This document shows, one piece after another, positions 1 to 11,687 of a stretch of 11,838 bases of DNA (position 1 is its first letter; every line of letters begins with the position of its first letter). The position numbers and the translations under genes were made by a program. The DNA lies in the NCBI GenBank assembly GCA_016212695.1, contig JACREX010000022.1, forward strand, positions 1 to 11,838, given 5' to 3'. The stretch is from Bacteroidia bacterium (GTDB lineage: Bacteria > Bacteroidota > Bacteroidia > Bacteroidales > GWF2-35-48). Under the pieces are notes generated by a model. The model had not been told where the DNA came from. It saw nothing but the letters and a program-made list of their open reading frames with translations, and did not search any database.

Positions 1-66
1 ACATAAAAGCCTTCGTGATTTTTCATCTAAAAAGGGTGATAATATTTTGTTTCGTTCTGATATTAA

Positions 67-519
67 TTTTTCATCTTTCATATTGCAAAGATAAAACTTA
101 ATTACGAAATAACCAAGTTATTTAATTACATTGTCTTAGTAAAGCAGTCGTCTCTTGTGGTTGATTATACGCATACCTTGCTGGGAACTGAAAAGGTGCA
201 GGGTGAAGAATGTTATAAAATTGAGTTGACACCGCTTCCGGATGCACCTGTGGTATGGGGCAAAATAATACTCTGGGTCGCCAAAAACAACTTTATCCAA
301 TGGAAAACCGAATTCTATGATGAAGACAAAATACTTATAACCACTCATAATTCCTATAATATAAAAAAATATAACGACAGGGAACTCCCATCGAAAATTG
401 AAGTGATCCCTGCAGATAAAAAAGACCAGAAAACCATTATTGAAATGACAGATATGGTGTTTGACAAACCCATTGATGATGCTTTGTTCACCCAGCAGAA
501 CATGAAAAAAGTAAAATAA
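67..519 (+). pseudogene. C-terminal part of a LolA-like (DUF4367/LolA_like-type) outer-membrane lipoprotein-sorting protein. N-terminus is missing or frameshifted, or the gene is truncated at the window edge.
   Basis: The frame is open from 67 to 519. Its only start-like codon is GTG at 157, and the 120-aa product (..VDYTHTLLGTEKVQGEECYKIELTP..) resembles the C-terminal half of ~240-aa LolA-like proteins that sit upstream of FtsX permease pairs in Bacteroidota. A different frame (frame 2, nt 2-91) is open from the window start and stops at 92-94, so a frameshift is possible around the T-runs at 67-78. The gene ends 11 nt before the first permease. Confidence 0.4.
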
Positions 520-530
520 CAAAAACCCAT

Positions 531-1748
531 ATGCAAACATATTTTAAGCTGGCCTGGAGAAATATCTGGCGGAATAAACGAAGAACATTGATAACTACCG
601 CGTCTATCTTTTTCGGAGTGCTTCTGTCAACATTTATGACTTCCATGCAGGAAGGATCGTATTCTCAATATATAACATCCATTGTAAATTCCTACTCAGG
701 ATATTTGCAAATTCATAAAAAAGGTTACTGGAATGATAAGATTATCAATAATTCTTTCCTGTTTGATAAGAATATAGAATCAAATTTAAAAAGTATTAAA
801 AAGATCACGATTTATACGCAAAGACTTGAAACATATTCATTGGCTTCATCGGAGGATGTTACAAAAGGCGTGATGGTAATGGGAATTGACCCGGAAAAAG
901 AAGATAAAATAACAAATATATCAGGAAAATTAAAACACGGACGGTTTTTAAAAAATGGCGATAACGGAATTATCCTTGGCAGCGGGTTAGCCAGATTTCT
1001 GAAACTTAAAATTAATGATACGCTTGTATTAATCGGACAGGGTTATCATGGCGCCGGTGCAGCGGGAAAATATCCCGTGAAAGGGATTATTAAACATCCT
1101 TCCCCTGAATTAGACAGAATATTGGTATATATGGATATTAAAAACTGCCAGGACTTATTTTCAGCTCCCGATATGTTGACATCCGTAGTTATCATGGTAC
1201 ATGATAATGACGAAGTAACTCTTGTAAAGAATGAACTTGTGCAATTGACGGACTATAACACAGAAGTCATGGATTGGCAGGAAATGAACCGGTTATTATT
1301 AAAGCAGATAGAAAGCGACCGTATCGGGGGTGTTATTACAAAAGGCGTTCTATACATGATTATTGCTTTTGGAATTTTAGGTACGGTGATGATGATGGCG
1401 GAAAGGAAAAAAGAATTTGGAGTGATTATGGCAGTTGGTATGCAGAAATACAAGTTAATTTTTATAGTGATATTAGAAACCATATTTTTGGGAATGATTG
1501 GCGTGATTGCCGGCACTGTTGCCAGTATCCCCTTGTTATATTATTTTTTGTTCAACCCGATTCCTCTTACAGGACAGGCAGGAGAAATGGTGTTGCAAAT
1601 GGGATTTGAGCCGGCCATGTTTTTTTCAATGACGCCTTCGGTGTTTTACGAACAGGCCCTGACGATCTTTATCTTTACGCTGATAATCGGTATTTATCCT
1701 GTGCTGAACATTCGGAAGTTAAAAGTAATGAATGCACTTAGAAGTTAA
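531..1748 (+). CDS. ABC transporter permease, FtsX/MacB-LolC-LolE family (LolC/E-like topology: TM1, large periplasmic domain, 3 C-terminal TMs)
   Basis: The N-terminus AWRNIWRNKRRT followed by a TM helix is the classic FtsX permease start. A ~230-aa soluble domain follows, then three hydrophobic helices in the last ~120 aa (FtsX domain). The 405-aa length is close to LolC/LolE. There is no fused ATPase. Confidence 0.85.
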   Translation: MQTYFKLAWRNIWRNKRRTLITTASIFFGVLLSTFMTSMQEGSYSQYITSIVNSYSGYLQIHKKGYWNDKIINNSFLFDKNIESNLKSIKKITIYTQRLETYSLASSEDVTKGVMVMGIDPEKEDKITNISGKLKHGRFLKNGDNGIILGSGLARFLKLKINDTLVLIGQGYHGAGAAGKYPVKGIIKHPSPELDRILVYMDIKNCQDLFSAPDMLTSVVIMVHDNDEVTLVKNELVQLTDYNTEVMDWQEMNRLLLKQIESDRIGGVITKGVLYMIIAFGILGTVMMMAERKKEFGVIMAVGMQKYKLIFIVILETIFLGMIGVIAGTVASIPLLYYFLFNPIPLTGQAGEMVLQMGFEPAMFFSMTPSVFYEQALTIFIFTLIIGIYPVLNIRKLKVMNALRS

Positions 1749-1769
1749 AATCAAAAAAAAATAGTTATC

Positions 1770-2987
1770 ATGCTTTGGCTGTTATCGTGGAAAAATATTT
1801 GGCGAAATAAACTGAGAAGTATTGTTGTAATCACCGCTGTAACATTAGGGGTATTTGCAGGGATATTTATGATCGCCTTTATGAATGGCATGGTTGAAGA
1901 TCGTATTAAATCGGTTATCAGAACGGAAATTTCGCATATTCAAATTCATCAGCCTGATTTTAAGGAAAACCATGATTTTTCTTTACGAATTAATAATGCA
2001 GACAGTCTTATACAAAAAATAATTCAGACAAAATATGTAGCCGCAGTGTGCAAAAGAATCATCATAAGTTCATTGGTCGCCTCTGCAGAGACAAATACAG
2101 GTGTAATAATAACGGGAATAGTACCGGATGAAGAAAAAAAAGTAACCAATATCAGCGATAAGATAATTGTAGGGAAATATTTTGAAGGCAGAGGGAAAAA
2201 CGCTGTTGTCATCGGGAAAAAATTTGTCGAAAAATTAAAGGTAACTATCAATAAAAAAATTATTATCACCCTGCAGGATATTAATAAAAATATCACCAGC
2301 GGGGCATTTCGGGTTGTTGGCATATATGAAACGGATAATACAATGTATGATGAGGCAAATGTTTTTGTCAGGTATAACGACCTCTGCATATTAACAGGGT
2401 TAAATGATACGGAAACTCACGAAATTGCCGTCCTGCTTACTAAGAATGAAAGTTCGGAAACTGTAAAACAGGAACTGAAAAAAAACTTCCCTGAACTTGA
2501 GGTGCAGGATTGGATGGAACTCAGTCCGGAAGCCGGGTATCTTGTAAGCGCCATGGATCAATATATGATTATATTTATTCTCATTATTCTTCTTGCACTT
2601 TGTTTCGGAATAATAAATACTATGCTGATGGTGGTATTGGAAAGAGTCAAAGAACTCGGTATGCTGATGGCGGTTGGTATGAGTAAACCGAGAGTTTTTT
2701 TCATGATCATGCTTGAAACCGTTTACCTGTCATTGACCGGAGGTTTGATCGGAATAGTTTCCGGTTATATTATATGTAAACACCTTGAGAAAGCCGGCTT
2801 GAATCTTTATTTCTGGAAGGAAGTTTATTCAAGCGTCGGATATTCTTCTTTCATATACCCGACAATTGATTTTCAAATGATCGTATTCACAACATGGATG
2901 GTTATACTTACAGGAATTCTTTCTGCATTATATCCTGCATATAAGGCCTTAAAATTAAATCCTGCCGAAGCTACCAGAACGGAATAG
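1770..2987 (+). CDS. Second ABC transporter permease, FtsX/LolC-LolE-like, paralogous to the upstream gene
   Basis: The N-terminus SWKNIWRNKLRS plus a TM helix has the same architecture and length (405 aa) as the preceding gene. The C-terminus carries the FtsX 3-TM region (LMVVLERVKELGMLMAVGMSK is homologous to LLYM..AERKKEFGVIMAVGMQK of the first permease). The gap to the upstream gene is 21 nt. Confidence 0.85.
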   Translation: MLWLLSWKNIWRNKLRSIVVITAVTLGVFAGIFMIAFMNGMVEDRIKSVIRTEISHIQIHQPDFKENHDFSLRINNADSLIQKIIQTKYVAAVCKRIIISSLVASAETNTGVIITGIVPDEEKKVTNISDKIIVGKYFEGRGKNAVVIGKKFVEKLKVTINKKIIITLQDINKNITSGAFRVVGIYETDNTMYDEANVFVRYNDLCILTGLNDTETHEIAVLLTKNESSETVKQELKKNFPELEVQDWMELSPEAGYLVSAMDQYMIIFILIILLALCFGIINTMLMVVLERVKELGMLMAVGMSKPRVFFMIMLETVYLSLTGGLIGIVSGYIICKHLEKAGLNLYFWKEVYSSVGYSSFIYPTIDFQMIVFTTWMVILTGILSALYPAYKALKLNPAEATRTE

Positions 2988-3014
2988 ATTTAAAAATGAT
3001 ATAAATTTACAACT

Positions 3015-3698
3015 ATGAATATAATTGAGATCAGGGGAATTTGTAAGACATATGATAAGAAAACGTTACCTGTTCATGCACTCAATGGCATTGATCTTAC
3101 ATTTCAGAAGGGTGAGTTTGCCTCGATAGTCGGCCCTTCAGGCTCAGGGAAAACAACATTGCTCAATATTATCGGAGGACTTGATGACCCTACCGATGGA
3201 GTTATATTAATTGACGGAGTTAATATTACAGCGTTAAGCGGAAGAAAAAAAACTCAGTTCCGTATGAAGAATATAGGGTTTGTTTTCCAGTCATTCAACC
3301 TGATTCCGGTATTTACAGTAAAAGAAAATGTTGAATTTATCATGCACCTGCAAGGCATATCAAAGGAAGAAAGAGAAAAACGAACAAACGAACTTCTTGA
3401 TGCCGTTGGATTAAATGATAAAAAAAACAACCGACCGAATAAATTATCGGGGGGCCAGCAGCAGCGGGTTGCCGTTGCCAGGGCGCTGGCTTCAAAACCA
3501 AAATTCATTCTTGCCGATGAACCCACGGCAAACCTTGATTCCAAATCAACAGAAAATTTACTCGACATTATGGAAAAACTGAACCAGGAAGAAAACATCA
3601 CCTTCATTTTTTCTACGCACGATTCAAGAGTGGTGAATAAAGCAAGAAGGGTGATTACCATAGAAGACGGAAAAGTGATAAGCGATATTTCCAATTAA
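3015..3698 (+). CDS. ABC transporter ATP-binding protein, LolD/MacB-type (COG1136-like)
   Basis: It has Walker A GPSGSGKTT, Q-loop FVFQSFNL, ABC signature LSGGQQQRVAVARAL, Walker B FILADEPT and H-loop FSTHD. The 227-aa size matches a stand-alone LolD-type NBD. Confidence 0.92.
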   Translation: MNIIEIRGICKTYDKKTLPVHALNGIDLTFQKGEFASIVGPSGSGKTTLLNIIGGLDDPTDGVILIDGVNITALSGRKKTQFRMKNIGFVFQSFNLIPVFTVKENVEFIMHLQGISKEEREKRTNELLDAVGLNDKKNNRPNKLSGGQQQRVAVARALASKPKFILADEPTANLDSKSTENLLDIMEKLNQEENITFIFSTHDSRVVNKARRVITIEDGKVISDISN

Positions 3699-3725
3699 CC
3701 TACTTGAAGTTTTCAAACTGCCTTA

Positions 3726-4895
3726 ATGATAAAACACATAAGCATATTGCTCTTGATTGTCTCTGTAACAACAGTCTGCGCGCAGGATTCTACAGCAGTG
3801 AAGAAAGAAAAAAAGTGGACACTGAACGGATATGTTAAAGATGTGCAATCGGTCTTTTTTGCTGATATTGAAAAGGACTGGCTCATCAATAATTTAATTC
3901 ATAACCGCATAAACTTTAAAGGGTATATTTCAAATTCCATAACAACAGCCATTGAAGTGAGAAACCGCTTTTTTTACGGTGATTTTGTAAAGTACATACC
4001 GGGTTATTCAGGCATGGTAAATGTGGATGACGGAATCTTAAAAGCAACTGAGAACCTTCTTTCCGAAAAATCATATATTTTAAATTTTTCGTTGGACAGG
4101 GCATGGATTGATTACAGCAAAGAAAAATACCAGGTAATAGCGGGACGGCAACGGATCAACTGGGGCCAGACATTTGTGTGGAATCCGAACGATATATTTA
4201 ATACCTATTCGTATTTTGATTTCGATTATGAAGAGAAACCCGGAAGCGATGCGGTACGGATTCAATATTACCCGTCGGCCACATCAAGAGCCGAGATTGC
4301 CGTAAAAGCAAACGGTGATGAAAAGATCACCGCAGCAGGATTATTCCGGTTCAACAGGTGGAATTATGATTTCCAGTTTATCTGCGGAATGCTTAACGAA
4401 ACCGATTATGTTGCGGGGGCAGGCTGGTCAGGACAGATAGCAAAAGGAGGATTCAGGGGAGAAGCAAGCTATTTTCACCCTAAAAATAAATTTGAAGATA
4501 CTACCGGCATTGTTGTAGCTTCTGCAGGCTATGATTATATGTTCAAAAACTCCTTATTTCTGCAGTGTGAATTTTTATTCAACAGTAACGGAGAGAAGGA
4601 TAATAATTTCGATATCTCAAAATTTTATTTCAGGACTATGACGCCAAAAAATCTTTCATTCACCCGCTTTTCGATGTTCTCATCGCTGACGTATCCTTTT
4701 TCTCCGTTGGTTAAAGCATCCTTTGCAGCCATGTATAATCCGGAAAACAATTCGTTTTTTGTGATCCCCTCTGTTGATGTTTCTTTAAAAGAGAATCTTG
4801 ATCTTTCATTCATTTCCCAGGTTTTTTATTCAGACAGAACGACAGAGGGTAATAAAGGAGTCTTCGTTTTTGCAAGATTAAAATGGAGTTTTTGA
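3726..4895 (+). CDS. Predicted outer-membrane beta-barrel protein (possibly alginate-export/Wzi-like fold), co-operonic with the Lol-like ABC genes
   Basis: The cleavable signal peptide MIKHISILLLIVSVTTVCAQ, alternating aromatic/hydrophilic beta-strand pattern and C-terminal ...ARLKWSF ending in Phe are typical of OM beta-barrels. The gap to the upstream ATPase gene is 27 nt. The GRQRINWGQTFVWNPND motif is reminiscent of alginate-export/Wzi-like OMPs; this is recalled, not verified. Confidence 0.5.
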   Translation: MIKHISILLLIVSVTTVCAQDSTAVKKEKKWTLNGYVKDVQSVFFADIEKDWLINNLIHNRINFKGYISNSITTAIEVRNRFFYGDFVKYIPGYSGMVNVDDGILKATENLLSEKSYILNFSLDRAWIDYSKEKYQVIAGRQRINWGQTFVWNPNDIFNTYSYFDFDYEEKPGSDAVRIQYYPSATSRAEIAVKANGDEKITAAGLFRFNRWNYDFQFICGMLNETDYVAGAGWSGQIAKGGFRGEASYFHPKNKFEDTTGIVVASAGYDYMFKNSLFLQCEFLFNSNGEKDNNFDISKFYFRTMTPKNLSFTRFSMFSSLTYPFSPLVKASFAAMYNPENNSFFVIPSVDVSLKENLDLSFISQVFYSDRTTEGNKGVFVFARLKWSF

Positions 4896-5058
4896 TTTTA
4901 ACAGGTCGCTGCAATTGAATTCCCGCGACCCGAAATTATATTTGAACCGCGGCGTTTACTGGATGCAGCAAGGCAGGAAAGAAAAAGCCTGCAGCGATAT
5001 CGGCAAGGCAAAATCCATGGGGCTTACAGTGCCTGATCTTGAAAAATTATGCAGATAG
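4882..5058 (+). pseudogene. Remnant of a TPR-repeat protein gene: the last ~52 codons plus stop, with no start codon
   Basis: In frame 1, 4900-5055 translates to NRSLQLNSRDPKLYLNRGVYWMQQGRKEKACSDIGKAKSMGLTVPDLEKLCR*. This fits the terminal TPR motif of Bacteroidota TPR proteins (A..LNP.....Y.NRG.......G....AC.D..KA..LG.......L...C). An in-frame stop lies immediately upstream inside the preceding gene, so there is no N-terminus. Confidence 0.4.
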
Positions 5059-5105
5059 GGCATTTTATTCAGTGCAATCCCGGTTTAAAAAAATGGGAAC
5101 CGCTA

Positions 5106-5137
5106 TTTGATATATTCATAAATTTATATTATTTTTG
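5106..5137 (+). promoter_or_regulatory. Candidate Bacteroidetes sigma-A-type promoter (-33 TTTG / -7 TAnnTTTG)
   Basis: TTTG at 5106-5109 and TATTTTTG at 5130-5137 are 20 nt apart, matching the Bacteroides TTTG..(19-21)..TAnnTTTG consensus. The site is ~170 nt upstream of the CDS starting at 5306. Confidence 0.35.
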
Positions 5138-5177
5138 TATTATATTAAAAACGGGATAAATTATCGCATTTTGAAAA

Positions 5178-5238
5178 GTTGGTAGTAGTAGTTGGTAGTT
5201 TGCAGTAACAGAGCGACTACCAACTACCGCTACCATCT
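5178..5238 (+). other. Long near-perfect hairpin (23-bp stem, 15-nt loop) in the leader of the 5306 gene. Possible 5'-UTR regulatory structure or palindromic intergenic element.
   Basis: AGTTGGTAGTAGTAGTTGGTAGT (5178-5200) pairs with ACTACCAACTACCGCTACCATCT (5216-5238) with 2 mismatches over 23 positions (one further position is a G-U wobble). The loop is 5201-5215. It contains reiterated GTTGGTAG and TAG units. It is not followed by a U-tract. Confidence 0.4.
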
Positions 5239-5305
5239 TCCAACTCATATTTTGTTGCGGAAATTTACACCGTCTGCAGTATAATAAACCCATACCCTTA
5301 AAACT

Positions 5306-6202
5306 ATGAAAACCGTAAAAATTTCTTTCATAATCTTTCTCCTGCTGAACATCTTCCATCAAAGACTAGCTGCGCAGGACACATTATTTAAAAAAAACAA
5401 AGAAACCGTTTTGTGCAAAGTAGTTGAAATAAGCCCAACAGAAATAAAATACAAAGCATGGAACAACCTTGACGGACCAAATTTTGTTATTTATTCCGAC
5501 GATGTTTATAAAATCAGATTCCAGAACGGCTCAGAGCAGATCATTAAACCCGATCCACTGACGCTTAACCAGGAAGCTCAGATAATTGATAAAAAACAGA
5601 ATGTTAAAATCGGTTTTTTTTCTCCGCTGAATAACAGCATTTGCGTGGGGTACGAAAGAGTTTTAAAATTAGGGACCAATATTGAGGGGAAAGTTGCAGC
5701 AATCGGTACAGGTTATCATTCAATGATCGCCAATAGTCATGATGTTTCGGGAACCTATTCGAAAATTGGCGCAAAATTCTTATTGGGACAGGATTTTTAT
5801 ATTAAAGGCATGAAATATATTCATCCACTGAAAGGGAGATACATTAAGATTGAACTGGCTTATTCCTATTTCAGGGTAAAAGATATCGAATTACACATTT
5901 ATAATAACCAAACCCCCTATACTCCTACAATAATAAAAACCGATGCTTTAGTCAATGCAGGCGCTCTAAATGTTATTTACGGAAGACAGTTTATTCTCGG
6001 AAATATGTTCACTCTCGATTATTTTATAGGCTTCGGGTATGGAGGGGCTAATCTGAAATACACAAATAATGATGCAAATAATATTAATTCAATGTATAAG
6101 TACAATGTTGACGATATTACCAATTACTACGGTTTTTCATATTTCAGCGATAATTTTCCTTTAACTTTTACAGCAGGCATGTCGCTCGGTTATATTTTTT
6201 AA
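5306..6202 (+). CDS. Secreted hypothetical protein: small N-terminal beta domain plus C-terminal outer-membrane beta-barrel-like region
   Basis: The signal peptide MKTVKISFIIFLLLNIFHQRLAAQ is followed by a ~60-aa segment (ETVLCKVVEISPTEIKYKAW..VIYSDDVYKIRFQNGSEQII) of a type recurrent in Bacteroidota lipoproteins/OMPs. The C-terminal ~200 aa show an alternating amphipathic strand pattern rich in G/Y/F/N and end ...MSLGYIF with a terminal Phe. Confidence 0.5.
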   Translation: MKTVKISFIIFLLLNIFHQRLAAQDTLFKKNKETVLCKVVEISPTEIKYKAWNNLDGPNFVIYSDDVYKIRFQNGSEQIIKPDPLTLNQEAQIIDKKQNVKIGFFSPLNNSICVGYERVLKLGTNIEGKVAAIGTGYHSMIANSHDVSGTYSKIGAKFLLGQDFYIKGMKYIHPLKGRYIKIELAYSYFRVKDIELHIYNNQTPYTPTIIKTDALVNAGALNVIYGRQFILGNMFTLDYFIGFGYGGANLKYTNNDANNINSMYKYNVDDITNYYGFSYFSDNFPLTFTAGMSLGYIF

Positions 6203-6260: not shown

Positions 6261-8315
6261 ATGAATTATTTATCAGAACACTGGGGGATGATACTAATCA
6301 TCTTCTGTTTATTGATTGTCTTTTTTAAGACCTTTGTAATTGTCGGTGGCCGCGAGATTGCTATTCTCGAACGAAGATGGTTTGGTAAGGATATGCCCAA
6401 AGGAAGAGTTATTGCCATGTCGAATGAAATGGGCATACAGGCCAGAACACTCGGCCCGGGTTTACATCTATTGATACCTTTTATCTATAAGGCAAAAAAA
6501 ATGCCTTTTACCTTTATTGCTGAAGACCAGGTGGGTATTATTGAATCTATTGATGGCGATTCAATTCCTCCCGGCAAGATTTTTGCCAGAGTGGTACCTG
6601 ATCATAATTCTTTTCAGGATTCTGAAGCATTCTTAAAAAACGGCGGCGAAAAAGGTCCGCAGATACAGATACTGGCCCCGGGAACCTACAGGATTAACCT
6701 TGTTTTATTTAAAATAAAAACAGTTCCTGCTATTGTGATAGATCGCGGTAAAGTGGGTATTGTAACTTCAATGGACGGCGATCCGATTGTTTCCGGACGC
6801 TTGCTTGCTCAAAGAGTGGAAGGACATTCAAAATTCGAAGACGGCGCAGCTTTTCTTGACAATCACGGGCAAAAAGGACCGCAGATCGAAATTTTACTTC
6901 CCGGCACCTATCGTATTAATACCGATTTATTTCATGTTGAAATCCGTGATGCAGCGATCATCCCTTCCGGAAAAGTTGGTCTGGTTACAGCGCTTGACGG
7001 CGTTCCTTTGCCTCAGACTGAATATGTAGCCAAATCGGTGACAGGCCACAGCGATTACCAGGATGCATCCAAGTTCCTTGCAGCCGGAGGCCAGAGAGGG
7101 CCGCAACTCGATGTGCTGAAACCCGGTACGTATTATATCAACATGCTCATGTTCCAGATTGAATTAGATAATGTCGCCATCATAGAAAGAGGCCAGGTAG
7201 CCGTGGTTGTTTCAAATGTCGGCGAAGAACCGAGCCAGATCAAAGAATTAATTGAAATCACGGCCAAAGAAGAAGGAGCAACCAATGTTGCCGATCGTGC
7301 CAAACAAACTGAAAGGCGTCTTGCCGCAGGTATTGAAAGATATGTCGTACCGCAGGGTTACAGGGGTATCCAGCAGGAAGTAACAGGTCCGGGCATCTAT
7401 TATCTGAATCGCAGAGCATTCATTATTTATATTATTGATACCACAAATATTACCATTGACTGGGACGAAGCTACCGATACCAAGTTCGACCCGCTGAAAG
7501 TGATTTCCTGCGACGGATTCGAGATCAGCGTTTCCGTGAAAGTAATCATCCGCGTCAGGCCCGATCAGGCCCCTTACATGGTTGCTAAAATCGGTAGTAT
7601 AGATAACTTGATCCAGCATGTGATCCATCCTATGATTGACTCCAGTTTCCGCAACCAGGCATCCTCCACCTCTGCCATGAATTTTATGCAGGACCGGCAG
7701 GAAGAGCAGAAGAAAGCCGAGGACCGCGCCAGGCTTGAGCTTGAAAAATATCACGTAGAATGTGTTTCTGTACTCATTTGTCAGATCAAACTACCGCAGG
7801 ATCTGATGGACACGCAAACTATGAAAATAATCGCACAGCAGCAACAGGCAATGTACCAGGAACAGCAAAAAGCAGAACAAACCCGTATTGCTACTGAAAA
7901 AACCAGATCAGAAGCAGATCAGCAGAAAAATCTTGTTGAAGCAGAAATTGGCGTTAAGATAGCCGAACAAAATAAAATGAAAGCCATACGATTTGCCGAA
8001 GGAGAAGCTGAGAGTATAAGGCTTCGCGCAGAAGGAGAAGCAAAAGGAATCACTGTAAAAGGACAGGCCGAAGGAGCTAAAATCCTTGCCATAGGCGAAG
8101 CGACAGCAAAAGCTTATACCCTGCAATGCCAGTCTCTCGGGCAGGAAAGCGTAACTGCTATAGAAATATCAAAACAGATCGCTGAAGGTAAAGTTAAAGT
8201 AACTCCCGATATGCTTGTGCAGGGGGGAGACAACCTGGGCGGCATCCTTTCAGCCTATCTTACTCAGAAAATGACAGGAAAAAATCCGGATGCAAATCAA
8301 ATTTCAAAAAGTTAA
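6261..8315 (+). CDS. Flotillin-like SPFH/Band-7 protein (YqiK/FloT family): N-terminal TM anchor, repeated N-terminal segments, SPFH core and EA-rich coiled-coil C-terminus
   Basis: There is a TM helix at aa 10-28. An SPFH core (..FDPLKVISCDGFEISVSVKVIIRVRPDQAPYMVAKIG..IQHVIHPMIDSSFRNQASSTSAMNFMQDRQ..) is followed by a Gln/Glu/Ala/Lys-rich coiled coil with flotillin-type repeats (AEGEAESIRLRAEGEAKG..AEGAKILAIGEATAKAY). The gap to the upstream gene is 58 nt. Confidence 0.85.
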   Translation: MNYLSEHWGMILIIFCLLIVFFKTFVIVGGREIAILERRWFGKDMPKGRVIAMSNEMGIQARTLGPGLHLLIPFIYKAKKMPFTFIAEDQVGIIESIDGDSIPPGKIFARVVPDHNSFQDSEAFLKNGGEKGPQIQILAPGTYRINLVLFKIKTVPAIVIDRGKVGIVTSMDGDPIVSGRLLAQRVEGHSKFEDGAAFLDNHGQKGPQIEILLPGTYRINTDLFHVEIRDAAIIPSGKVGLVTALDGVPLPQTEYVAKSVTGHSDYQDASKFLAAGGQRGPQLDVLKPGTYYINMLMFQIELDNVAIIERGQVAVVVSNVGEEPSQIKELIEITAKEEGATNVADRAKQTERRLAAGIERYVVPQGYRGIQQEVTGPGIYYLNRRAFIIYIIDTTNITIDWDEATDTKFDPLKVISCDGFEISVSVKVIIRVRPDQAPYMVAKIGSIDNLIQHVIHPMIDSSFRNQASSTSAMNFMQDRQEEQKKAEDRARLELEKYHVECVSVLICQIKLPQDLMDTQTMKIIAQQQQAMYQEQQKAEQTRIATEKTRSEADQQKNLVEAEIGVKIAEQNKMKAIRFAEGEAESIRLRAEGEAKGITVKGQAEGAKILAIGEATAKAYTLQCQSLGQESVTAIEISKQIAEGKVKVTPDMLVQGGDNLGGILSAYLTQKMTGKNPDANQISKS
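6429..7142 (+). repeat. Intragenic tandem repeats (~222 nt / ~74 aa, 3 clear copies plus degenerate flanking copies) in the N-terminal region of the flotillin-like protein
   Basis: The protein segments EKGPQIQILAPGTYRIN..GKVGIVTSMDGDPI..GHSKFEDGAAFL, QKGPQIEILLPGTYRIN..GKVGLVTALDGVPL..GHSDYQDASKFL and QRGPQLDVLKPGTYYIN..GQVAVVVSNVG align with each other. They also align with the first copy MGIQARTLGPGLHLLIP.. and a fifth RGIQQEVTGPGIYYLN at ~7359-7403. DNA copies are diverged (e.g. aaaggtccgcagatacagatactggccccgggaacctacaggattaac at 6651 versus aaaggaccgcagatcgaaattttacttcccggcacctatcgtattaat at 6873). Confidence 0.75.
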
Positions 8316-10515: not shown

Positions 10516-10614
10516 GACTGACGACTGATGACTGACGACTGGACTGATGACTGACGACTGATGACTGACGACTGATGACTGACGACTGATGACTGACGAC
10601 TGATGACTGACGAC
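10516..10614. repeat. Heptanucleotide tandem repeat (GACTGAY)x14, i.e. about 7 copies of a 14-bp unit GACTGACGACTGAT, with one 5-nt unit at 10537-10541
   Basis: Direct reading gives gactgac/gactgat alternating from 10516 to 10611, with a single shortened unit (gactg) at 10537-10541. Confidence 0.9.
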
Positions 10615-10657: not shown

Positions 10658-10733
10658 GACATTGTCAAATTGTTATATTGCTAAATTGTTATATTGCTAT
10701 ATTGCTAAATTGCTAAATTGCTAAATTGTTAAG
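10658..10733. repeat. Degenerate AT-rich tandem array, ~9 copies of a 7-9-bp unit (A)ATTG(C/T)TA(T), beginning with GACATTGTCAA
   Basis: The sequence reads gacattgtcaaattgttat-attgcta-aattgttat-attgct-atattgcta-aattgcta-aattgcta-aattgttaagc. Confidence 0.7.
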
Positions 10734-10743
10734 CGGATATTCA

Positions 10744-10808
10744 CAACAATTTAACCATTGAGCCATTCAACCATTCAGCCATTTAACAATGTCAACAATT
10801 TAACCATT
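10744..10808. repeat. Third short-repeat block: CCATTYAR units (x5-6) bracketed by a 13-bp direct repeat CAACAATTTAACC (10744-10756 and 10790-10802)
   Basis: The sequence reads caacaatttaacc-attgag-ccattcaa-ccattcag-ccatttaa-caatgt-caacaatttaacc-atttaaag. AACAATTT is the reverse complement of the AAATTGTT unit of the preceding array, and ACAATGTCAA is the reverse complement of TTGACATTGT, so the preceding array's leading GACATTGTCAA shares only the ACATTGT/GACATTGT core in inverted orientation. Confidence 0.6.
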
Positions 10809-10851
10809 TAAAGTATAATTGTCTTGCTTCCCTTAGATTTTCTTACAGGAT

Positions 10852-10883
10852 TTTGAATAATCAGTAAAATTTGCTTAATTTTG
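10852..10883 (+). promoter_or_regulatory. Candidate Bacteroidetes sigma-A-type promoter for the DUF4160-DUF2442-HicB-like module
   Basis: TTTG at 10852-10855 and TAATTTTG at 10876-10883 are 20 nt apart. The predicted TSS near 10890 gives a ~27-nt leader to the ATG at 10917. Confidence 0.4.
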
Positions 10884-10916
10884 TATATTATTAATTTGAT
10901 TAACAGGTTAAACAAA

Positions 10917-11174
10917 ATGCCGGAAGTAAGCAGATTTTACGGAATAATAATAATGATGTATTGGCAGGAGCACAATCCGCCGCATTTTCATGCCGAATAC
11001 CAGGGATACAAGATGGTGGTTAATATTTCCACCCTTGAAACTAAGGGAGAATTTCCCAAAAGAGCCAAAGCGTTGGTTTTTGAATGGCTTAGCCTGCATA
11101 GAGAAGAGTTGTTGAAAAACTGGGAACTTGCTTTACTTAGTAAACCTATTGAAAGCATAAACCCATTAGATTAA
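10917..11174 (+). CDS. DUF4160-family small protein (conserved PPHFH motif)
   Basis: MPEVSRFYGIIIMMYWQEHNPPHFHAEYQGYKMVVNI.. matches the typical DUF4160 N-terminus (MP..S.F.GI.I.MY..EH.PPHFHA.Y). The start is placed at ATG 10917 rather than the ORF-track 10881 because family members begin MP.VS and the promoter -7 box overlaps 10881. Confidence 0.75.
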   Translation: MPEVSRFYGIIIMMYWQEHNPPHFHAEYQGYKMVVNISTLETKGEFPKRAKALVFEWLSLHREELLKNWELALLSKPIESINPLD

Positions 11175-11179
11175 TTACT

Positions 11180-11428
11180 ATGGATGATAATCATAATAAA
11201 ATGGTTGCTGTAACAGCAGTAAAAACACTCGACGACTTTAATATAGAACTTACTTTTGATGATGGTTGTACTAAAGTGGTTGACTTAAAACCGTTTTTAA
11301 ATAAACCCATTACGAAGCCATTAAAAAAGCCTGATTATTTTGCCCGGGTAAAGATTGATAGTTGCGGAGGAATATATTGGCCAAACACTTATGATATTTG
11401 TCCTGAATTTTTAAGGTATCATATTTAA
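11180..11428 (+). CDS. DUF2442-family small protein, translationally coupled to the DUF4160 gene (5-nt gap)
   Basis: ..VKTLDDFNIELTFDDGCTKVVDLKPFL......PLKKPDYFARVKID.CGGIYWPNTYDICPEFLY fits the DUF2442 pattern (l.l.F.DG....vDl.....PL.d...F..v.....g.i.WPng.Di.Pe.LY). It is the usual genomic partner of DUF4160. Confidence 0.75.
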   Translation: MDDNHNKMVAVTAVKTLDDFNIELTFDDGCTKVVDLKPFLNKPITKPLKKPDYFARVKIDSCGGIYWPNTYDICPEFLRYHI

Positions 11429-11471
11429 TAAAACTTTTTAAAACAGGCACAACTTAAAACGGAGGATTAAT

Positions 11472-11687
11472 ATGGTAAAATATGTAGTTGTATTCGAAAA
11501 AACGGAAACAGGCTACAGCGCCTATGTTCCCGATTTACCGGGTTGCGTTGCAACAGGAAAGACAAAGAGCATTACTGAAAAATATATTGTTGAAGCTATT
11601 CAATTTCACTTGGAAGGATTAAGAGAAGAAAAAATAAAAATCCCGATTCAAAAAACCGATACCGAAACCTTTGTTTTTGCTGTATAA
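11472..11687 (+). CDS. HicB-like antitoxin-family protein (UPF0150/HicB N-terminal RNase-H-like domain only); no HicA gene detectable nearby
   Basis: YSAYVPDLPGCVATGKT.......I.EAIQFHLEGL is the hallmark HicB N-domain. At 71 aa it lacks a C-terminal RHH/HTH DNA-binding domain. A strong Shine-Dalgarno GGAGGA lies 8 nt upstream of the ATG, which is atypical for this window. Confidence 0.8.
   Translation: MVKYVVVFEKTETGYSAYVPDLPGCVATGKTKSITEKYIVEAIQFHLEGLREEKIKIPIQKTDTETFVFAV

Follow-up and report, generated by a model that had tools for sequence, protein, structure and literature searches.

A conserved Bacteroidota gene cluster that joins an FtsX-type ABC transporter to a LolA-like carrier and an outer-membrane barrel, interrupted by an insertion sequence in one Bacteroidia genome

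The transit of hydrophobic molecules through the periplasm and outer membrane is understood for only a few systems, namely Lol, Lpt, Mla, and their relatives. A contig from a Bacteroidia bacterium (JACREX010000022.1 of the metagenome-assembled genome, or MAG, GCA_016212695.1) raises the question of whether a further route exists, because it opens with part of a gene for a LolA-like protein, two FtsX-type permease genes, a separate ATP-binding cassette (ABC) ATPase gene, and a gene for an outer-membrane beta-barrel. We analyzed all 11,838 nucleotides (nt) of this contig, hereafter the window. A preliminary description of the same DNA had proposed a trans-envelope export system for lipoproteins or lipids, possibly a Bacteroidota-specific exporter of surface lipoproteins. 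With moderate confidence, we instead read the cluster as an accessory, normally TetR-repressed exporter spanning three compartments, whose cargo would be hydrophobic or amphipathic (a lipid or small non-polar compound is the likeliest), and whose copy in this genome is probably disabled.

The genes run in one direction (Table 1) with gaps of 11, 21, 27, and 27 nt between them and a 410-nt gap 3′ of the barrel gene, a spacing that fits a single operon from 140 to 4895. Hydropathy gave each permease a first transmembrane (TM) segment, a periplasmic domain of ~ 230 amino acids (aa), and then three further TM segments, which bears out the layout in the preliminary description. The two permeases matched MacB_PCD at 47.7 and 70.5 bits (cutoff 27) and FtsX at 46.8 and 61.6 bits (cutoff 25.5), and by this domain content and topology we assign them to the type VII ABC superfamily (MacB/FtsX fold, mechanotransmission). 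Their best NCBIfam match was the lolCE model TIGR02212, at 101.7 bits for A and 151.1 bits for B against a cutoff of 362.45, while the LolE and LolC exception models reached 42–72 bits against cutoffs of 439–540; permease B was also matched by the MacB model. The nearest solved structures by sequence were LolF (2.6e-17), YtrF, a pneumococcal FtsX-type permease, and LolC/LolE, followed by MacB; LolF, LolC/E, and MacB were matched over their full length, and identity to E. coli LolC/E was 16–17%. Permeases A and B share 29% identity, and their orthologues form two separate series (46–75% identical across genomes for type A). This implies that the A/B heterodimer, in which B is the presumed partner of A, is old. 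At the position of the hairpin with which the LolC Hook docks LolA in E. coli, which we take to be PSASQFTPMGRIP, both permeases have 6 residues fewer and an unrelated sequence, as far as an approximate alignment at ~ 17% identity allows. Type A has a conserved QGYHGxxAAxK loop at this position, a candidate docking site for the carrier.

The ATPase matched ABC_tran at 131 bits, with Walker A, signature, and H-loop intact and a Walker B of FILADEPT. Its score against the LolD model TIGR02211 was 241 bits, below the cutoff of 307.75, and other models followed closely (DarD 225, DevA 214, FtsE 206.5, and MacB nucleotide-binding domain, NBD, 205 bits); it is 37% identical to E. coli LolD. No membrane-fusion protein (MFP/HlyD) adaptor and no TolC/OEP domain was found in any product of the window with Pfam or NCBIfam. 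With two FtsX permeases, a separate NBD, and no MFP gene, the organization is LolCDE-like rather than MacB-like, as had been proposed.

The last gene had been thought to encode an outer-membrane barrel, and its predicted structure, signal peptide, and C-terminal phenylalanine agree. An AlphaFold2 model of the 389-aa product, made with a 54-sequence alignment (predicted local distance difference test 84.2; predicted template modeling score 0.76), has an N-terminal signal helix and is otherwise all-beta. Read from its DSSP string, the modeled barrel would have 18 strands, short periplasmic turns, and long loops at ~ 143–173 and ~ 287–314. The signal peptide ends in ...CAQ and the chain in ...RLKWSF; across the family, signal peptides end in ...AQ and the final residue is F in 51 of the 54 members and Y in the other three. 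The most conserved segment of the family, GRQRINWG...WNPNDIFN...DFDYEE.PGSDA, lies in the first long loop, which is the least confidently modeled part of the barrel and which, if Occ channels are a guide, probably tucks into the lumen.

This family is very large: it has more than 6,400 matches in a 90%-clustered collection, all of them unnamed and without Pfam domains, and its representatives of 50% clusters number 3,378 at E <= 1e-3 and 642 at E <= 1e-30. The window protein has no match in Pfam or NCBIfam, and searches with family profiles found nothing in the Protein Data Bank. It does not match DUF1302 (PF06980; gathering score 23.2 bits), to which weak matches come from 28 members in a diverse family sample of 83 (E 1.1e-7 for the best). 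In the one such match inspected, the alignment covered profile positions 156–200 of 541, that is, ~ 45 residues around the conserved motif, at 19.1 bits against the 23.2-bit cutoff. By this comparison, the two families appear to share a motif rather than membership, and remote homology is possible.

Whether the barrel belongs with the transporter genes was evaluated through gene order in relatives. A scan of one genome per GTDB species recovered at least 591 barrel relatives, and the best 80 of these come nearly all from MAGs of Bacteroidales or other Bacteroidota, with Aquimarina hainanensis and one 'Chlorobi' MAG in addition. Sixty-six loci extend 4.3 kb or more upstream of the barrel gene. 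In 63 of these, a full-length PF17131 (LolA-like) gene, the A permease, the B permease, the ATPase, and the barrel stand in the same order and strand; one more (L050) keeps all five genes with two unrelated genes inserted, for a total of 64/66. The five-gene arrangement that the preliminary description asked about is thus conserved in Bacteroidota. It persists down to 34% barrel identity (L090, L093), and at L072 a two-component system occupies the place of the ABC and carrier genes. In L002 and L004, the ATPase gene overlaps the barrel gene, and one database entry (P0086) has been called as an ATPase-barrel fusion. Because the conserved cluster is so tightly packed, there is no room in it for an MFP gene. 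None of the three observations that the preliminary description had named as speaking against it was made: a barrel gene unlinked from the ABC genes, permeases of the MacB/DevC type, or an intact upstream gene unrelated to LolA.

Directly upstream of the PF17131 gene, 39 of 56 loci have a gene for a TetR-family regulator. A TetR repressor at the head of a unit is typical of inducible accessory exporters. As a separate observation, 15 of the 56 upstream ORFs (open reading frames) also match EF-hand models (best E 2e-7; L002, L010, L014, and others), and the consensus of the alignment includes what looks like a canonical loop for calcium binding, DPNxDGxLxxxE. Such a loop would be unusual in a TetR ligand domain and might point to the signal to which these operons respond.

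Some neighbors on the other side touch on the cargo. In 16 of 51 loci, all of one subclade with longer permeases (~ 470 aa), a 245-aa membrane methyltransferase of the PEMT/ICMT/DUF1295 type is encoded ~ 40 nt 3′ of the barrel on the same strand (L028, L032, L036, L043, L049, L052, L055, L059, L062, L063, L066, L070, L074, L079, L083, and L014), which hints at a lipid or prenyl-carboxyl substrate that is modified there. In L088/L089 (3303–8266), the gene for a divergent barrel (P0314, 34% identity) overlaps the end of a patatin-like phospholipase gene by 4 nt and is preceded by a 120-aa ORF and a penicillin-amidase-family acylase gene, with neither ABC nor PF17131 genes in the vicinity. The barrel family thus has a second genomic context, one related to lipids or acyl groups.

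The first gene of the window departs from this conserved pattern. The preliminary description had placed a LolA-like gene from position 67 and considered it truncated or frameshifted. The LolA-like assignment holds for 140–519, while positions 67–139 belong to an insertion sequence (IS); the gene is indeed truncated and inactivated, by IS insertion and not by a frameshift or sequencing fault. The fragment scores 114.5 bits against PF17131 (LolA_like / TP_0789-like; gathering score 30) and covers profile positions 70–184 of 184 only, which marks it as a remnant, without a signal peptide or an N-terminal half. Homology to the full-length orthologues of 247–256 aa begins abruptly at LVKQSS..., at about column 126, and there are stops in all frames 5′ of it. 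The gene is full length in 63 related loci, and since all of these orthologues are intact, a lineage-specific and probably recent inactivation is indicated; the remnant itself is presumed non-functional. No near-identical intact allele was found in the protein collection. Public annotation of the MAG gives the stretch 157–519 as a 120-aa 'outer membrane lipoprotein-sorting protein' with a GTG start (P0121), and this entry is an IS-truncated pseudogene fragment.

The IS was recognized from its edge. On the minus strand, an ORF starts with ATG at 81–79, reads MKDEKLISERNKILSPFLDEKSRRLLC, and runs off the contig end at position 1. Its 27-aa peptide has no match in Pfam or NCBIfam and no tblastn match in plasmids; a degenerate DNA pattern scan of metagenome contigs found a relative, L085, to whose gene product it is identical at 22 of 27 N-terminal residues. 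The L085 gene carries PF07592 DDE_Tnp_ISAZ013 (7e-77 and 5e-58 in two ORF halves). DNA similarity to L085 continues through the non-coding IS end to window position 139, with a score reached by 1 of 2000 shuffles, and the 36-nt terminal inverted repeats of the L085 element start at the sequence equivalent to the IS end in the window. The true terminus falls within 139–143. The contig thus holds 27 transposase codons and one end of an IS that is probably of the ISAzo13 family, and the DDE domain itself would lie beyond the contig end. In L085, the ISAzo13-family transposase (4361–5588, minus strand) is split into two ORFs of 271 and 130 aa that together span PF07592 (1–174 and 184–308), which could be either a frameshifted or decayed copy or programmed recoding.

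Other causes of the truncation were considered and rejected. A window-edge artifact is ruled out by the stops in all three frames upstream and by the fact that the window is the whole contig. A frameshift is ruled out because no frame of 1–139 holds N-terminal PF17131 homology and because 139 nt could not accommodate the ~ 125 missing codons. A hairpin or chimeric contig end is ruled out as well, since no significant inverted repeat joins 1–140 to the rest of the contig (the sole candidate, 20 nt at 90%, is at chance level) and the same junction is present in an independent Logan assembly. The contig in question, L001, is identical across the IS junction and ends at window position 111, which is where an assembler with k = 31, presumably the value used for Logan, would end if the repeat ended at about 140.

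The insertion removed the signal peptide and N-terminal half of the carrier and cut the remaining genes off from their usual TetR/promoter side. The four ORFs 3′ of the remnant are full length relative to their homologues, and the operon in this MAG is probably inactive.

How the intact cluster would work can be proposed from the observed gene content, folds, and conservation, from which we infer which way transport runs, how the load is handed over, and what class of substrate it is. The A/B heterodimer would be powered by two ATPase copies and would be, like LolCDE or MacB, an ABC transporter of the type VII 'mechanotransmission' kind. Cytoplasmic ATP hydrolysis would move the large periplasmic domains and thereby draw the substrate from the outer leaflet of the inner membrane or from the periplasm. 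The substrate would then pass to the PF17131 carrier, which may dock at the conserved type-A loop at the LolC-Hook position and would shield its load across the periplasm. The orthologues of this carrier have ordinary signal peptides, no lipobox cysteine at the cleavage site, and no membrane anchor, and should therefore be soluble periplasmic proteins; solved PF17131 relatives (9tp6, 3buu, 4z48, 3bk5) have no function attached to them. The carrier would finally deliver to the 18-stranded barrel, whose conserved, inward-folding loop may gate insertion into, or passage across, the outer membrane.

Architecture and conservation argue strongly for a trans-envelope export route with a hydrophobic cargo. 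An accessory exporter of a lipid or small molecule is favored over a housekeeping or surface-lipoprotein route because most of the clusters are under TetR control, the distribution among the best 80 of at least 591 relatives looks accessory, disruption by the IS is tolerated in this MAG, and lipase, acylase, and methyltransferase genes are neighbors in some relatives. Several observations weigh against our reading. The best HMM (hidden Markov model) matches of the permeases and ATPase are Lol models, though far below cutoff, and TetR is absent at ~ 30% of loci. What hints at a lipid or acyl cargo is circumstantial and was seen in subclades or distant relatives. The similarity to DUF1302 extends over only ~ 45 residues and the window barrel itself does not reach it, and the intactness of all four downstream ORFs tells against a disabled operon.

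The alternative that fares best is a second Lol-type pathway, in which the ABC transporter would extract a subset of lipoproteins, PF17131 would carry them, and the barrel would insert them or flip them to the cell surface. This would make the cluster a candidate for the surface-lipoprotein exporter of Bacteroidota, the view preferred in the preliminary description, and the same proposal has been made in silico for Borrelia BBJ23-29 (PMC13078400). It draws on the LolCE and LolD models as top NCBIfam matches, on LolF, LolC, and LolE structures that are nearer than MacB, on a heterodimeric permease with a separate NBD as in LolCDE, and on a carrier in the LolA superfamily. The scores are nevertheless far below the cutoffs (102 and 151 against 362; 241 against 308), with DarD, DevA, FtsE, and the MacB NBD nearly equal to LolD. 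The carrier is of PF17131, and the region of the LolC Hook is shorter and unrelated. A TetR gene at the head of most clusters (39/56) would be odd for housekeeping lipoprotein sorting, the concentration of the best 80 of at least 591 relatives in uncultured Bacteroidales MAGs suggests an accessory system, and a carrier knocked out by an IS is tolerated here. Some barrel relatives, moreover, stand beside lipases and acylases without ABC genes; the patatin lipase/acylase neighbors, like the methyltransferase (16/51), favor a small hydrophobic molecule or lipid. On this evidence, the lipoprotein substrate suggested earlier is less probable, and we consider a second Lol pathway unlikely.

Somewhat harder to sustain is a MacAB-TolC-type pump that confers resistance to drugs or antimicrobial peptides, with the barrel as exit duct and PF17131 as an adaptor or accessory rather than a shuttle. 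TetR control is typical of efflux pumps, MacB_PCD is present, the MacB model matches permease B, the ATPase resembles the MacB NBD, and the predicted barrel is built like a substrate-specific channel (OprD/ChiP-like). Such a pump would, however, lack its membrane-fusion protein, its barrel would not be TolC-like, and PF17131 orthologues have no membrane anchor. An 18-stranded barrel also has no periplasmic tunnel with which to reach an inner-membrane pump, and a soluble shuttle would bridge the gap more simply. We regard a pump of this type as quite unlikely.

Another view centers on the outer-membrane half. The PF17131 carrier and a DUF1302-like barrel might form a general, ancient delivery device that accepts one inner-membrane motor or another: an ABC transporter of type VII in the present cluster, MMPL/RND (resistance-nodulation-division) proteins in P. 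gingivalis, and the same kind of motor again in Proteobacteria, there with DUF1329/DUF1302. Among Bacteroidota, its role would be to bring a class of envelope lipids or surface lipoproteins to the outer leaflet. As a joint claim, this strikes us as a long shot; if true, it would partly explain how lipidated molecules get to the cell surface in Bacteroidota and perhaps in spirochetes, a long-standing gap.

It is very unlikely that the route runs inward, with the barrel admitting a hydrophobic nutrient or outer-membrane lipid, PF17131 carrying it inward, and the ABC transporter inserting it into the inner membrane: OprD-, ChiP-, and maltoporin-like barrels are mostly uptake channels, and the hydrolytic enzymes (patatin, acylase) beside some barrel relatives would fit nutrient acquisition, but no importer-type solute-binding protein is present, TetR-controlled FtsX systems are generally exporters, and characterized type VII ABC transporters (MacB, LolCDE, FtsEX, BceAB, and HrtBA) act outward or as mechanotransducers, none being known to import.

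The remaining features of the window are included in Table 1. The gene just downstream of the operon encodes a 298-aa protein that has a signal peptide and faintly matches DUF3575 (E 0.009); the product may be a second beta-barrel of the outer membrane, and the gene is not kept at that position in relatives. The 684-aa protein that follows has an SPFH/Band 7 domain confined to residues 362–539, while its N-terminal ~ 340 residues have no Pfam match and contain three internal repeats, e.g., GPQIQILAPGTYRINLVLF, GPQIEILLPGTYRINTDLF, and GPQLDVLKPGTYYINMLMF. The G+C fraction around this gene is 0.44–0.47, compared with ~ 0.33–0.40 in the rest of the contig. Three adjoining short-period tandem arrays lie between a Macro-domain gene and a DUF4160 gene: the first consists of GACTGATGACTGAC x7 with 94% matches, and the others have periods of 8 nt (AAATTGCT x8) and 16 nt (ATTTAACCATTCAGCC x3.7). 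Close to the right contig end, a trio of small adjoining genes resembles a module of the toxin-antitoxin or mobile-element type. Rfam and tRNA scans of the window found nothing. Promoter-like sites of the sigma-70 type numbered 32 against a shuffle mean of 20.4 (standard deviation 4.7) in a scan without Bacteroidota promoter types, and terminator-like sites in the window were at chance level.

Table 1. Features of the 11,838-nt window, with positions counted from its first nucleotide.
Feature	Position	Strand	Remarks
Probable ISAzo13-family IS, left end	1..139	-	Terminal inverted repeat ~105-139, short leader, first 27 transposase codons
PF17131 gene, 3′ remnant	140..519	+	C-terminal ~125 codons only
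Type-A FtsX/MacB-type permease, 405 aa	531..1748	+	MacB_PCD + FtsX
Type-B FtsX/MacB-type permease, 405 aa	1770..2987	+	MacB_PCD + FtsX
Stand-alone ABC ATPase, 227 aa	3015..3698	+	ABC_tran
Outer-membrane beta-barrel, 389 aa	3726..4895	+	18 strands by structure prediction; no Pfam match
298-aa protein	5306..6202	+	Signal peptide
684-aa protein	6261..8315	+	SPFH/Band 7
Tandem arrays	10516..10614 and 10661..10811		Intergenic
Three small adjoining genes	10881..11687	+	DUF4160 (97 aa), DUF2442 (82 aa), HicB-like antitoxin fragment (71 aa)

For this contig, the outcome is the more modest one that an annotated 'outer membrane lipoprotein-sorting protein' is an IS-truncated pseudogene in an operon that is probably inactive. 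For the group as a whole, the cluster is a compact, self-contained candidate of six genes, TetR included, for another route through the periplasm and outer membrane, and its regulator could reveal the substrate. Its outer-membrane component comes from a very large family without a name, a Pfam model, or a solved structure. Since at least one cultured species, Aquimarina hainanensis (KCTC 42423, locus L073), carries the full cluster, the question is directly testable. The cluster is widely conserved in Bacteroidota and undescribed as such, no description of it having been found in the literature searched.

Among known systems, LolCDE-LolA is the closest in plan, with two distinct FtsX permeases whose periplasmic domains are large, an NBD encoded separately, and a soluble periplasmic partner from the LolA superfamily. 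The permeases here are likewise a likely heterodimer (29% identical) served by an ATPase gene of its own (227 aa), and by sequence nothing matches better, weak as the matches are, than the Lol models and the LolF/LolC/LolE structures. The differences are that every curated Lol score falls short of its cutoff, the carrier belongs to PF17131 and not to LolA (PF03548), the Hook region is not the same, the outer-membrane partner is a predicted 18-stranded barrel instead of the lipoprotein LolB, and the whole unit is usually under TetR control. From MacAB-TolC, the cluster differs in that its NBD is not fused and has a separate gene, and its barrel is a predicted 18-stranded channel unlike TolC. 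On these comparisons, it appears to be a Lol-type extractor with a carrier, yet neither a LolCDE orthologue nor a MacAB-TolC pump. Compared with the 18-stranded monomeric channels OprD/Occ, ChiP, and AlgE, the barrel has 6–11% sequence identity and matches none of their Pfam families, and those channels are not encoded with ABC transporters or LolA-like proteins.

The absence of a canonical Lol counterpart for such a barrel, which the preliminary description had pointed out, stands, though the idea itself has precedents. The in-silico description of Borrelia BBJ23-BBJ29 combines an ABC transporter of type VII, a LolA-like protein, and an Omp85 barrel (PMC13078400). It follows the same logic of ABC transporter, LolA-like carrier, and outer-membrane barrel, but its permease is predicted to be homodimeric, its barrel is of the Omp85 type (BamA/TamA-like), and it has extra chaperone-like genes and lies on linear plasmids. 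In P. gingivalis, the co-regulated operon PG1178-PG1181 encodes a TetR protein, an MMPL protein, a PF17131 'lipoprotein-sorting protein', and a hypothetical protein (PMC10470040, PMC11018363); it is strongly induced in heme/iron limitation and affected by nitric oxide stress (PMC10470040, PMC10434189, PMC11018363). This is again a Bacteroidota operon with TetR at its head and PF17131 followed by an uncharacterized protein, but its motor is MMPL/RND and not ABC.

In Proteobacteria, clusters of DUF1302, DUF1329 (LolA superfamily), BNR, and RND genes have been described (PMC6394551; bioRxiv 10.1101/072470). AmeABCD of Castellaniella defragrans is associated with monoterpene metabolism and tolerance (PMC6394551), and for a co-fit cluster in several Proteobacteria, its authors proposed export of a cell-wall component (bioRxiv 10.1101/072470). 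AupA/AupB of Marinobacter are not counted as evidence here, since the paper on them does not assign them to DUF1302/DUF1329. These modules, e.g., AmeABCD and Sama_1588-1591, resemble the present cluster in joining a barrel, a LolA-superfamily protein, and an inner-membrane energizer (HAE3/MMPL-type RND), with apolar compounds as the concern, and DUF1302 shares with our barrel family the most conserved motif of the latter. They differ in having an RND motor where the motor here is an ABC transporter of type VII, a DUF1329 carrier of ~ 450 aa where PF17131 has ~ 250 aa, a barrel of ~ 540–600 aa where the one here has ~ 390 aa, and a BNR/Ycf48-like component that this cluster lacks. By analogy, this recurrent pairing of a LolA-superfamily carrier with a DUF1302-like outer-membrane barrel, with an ABC motor in one phylum and an RND motor in another, points to a modular principle, of which the Bacteroidota cluster would be the type VII ABC version.

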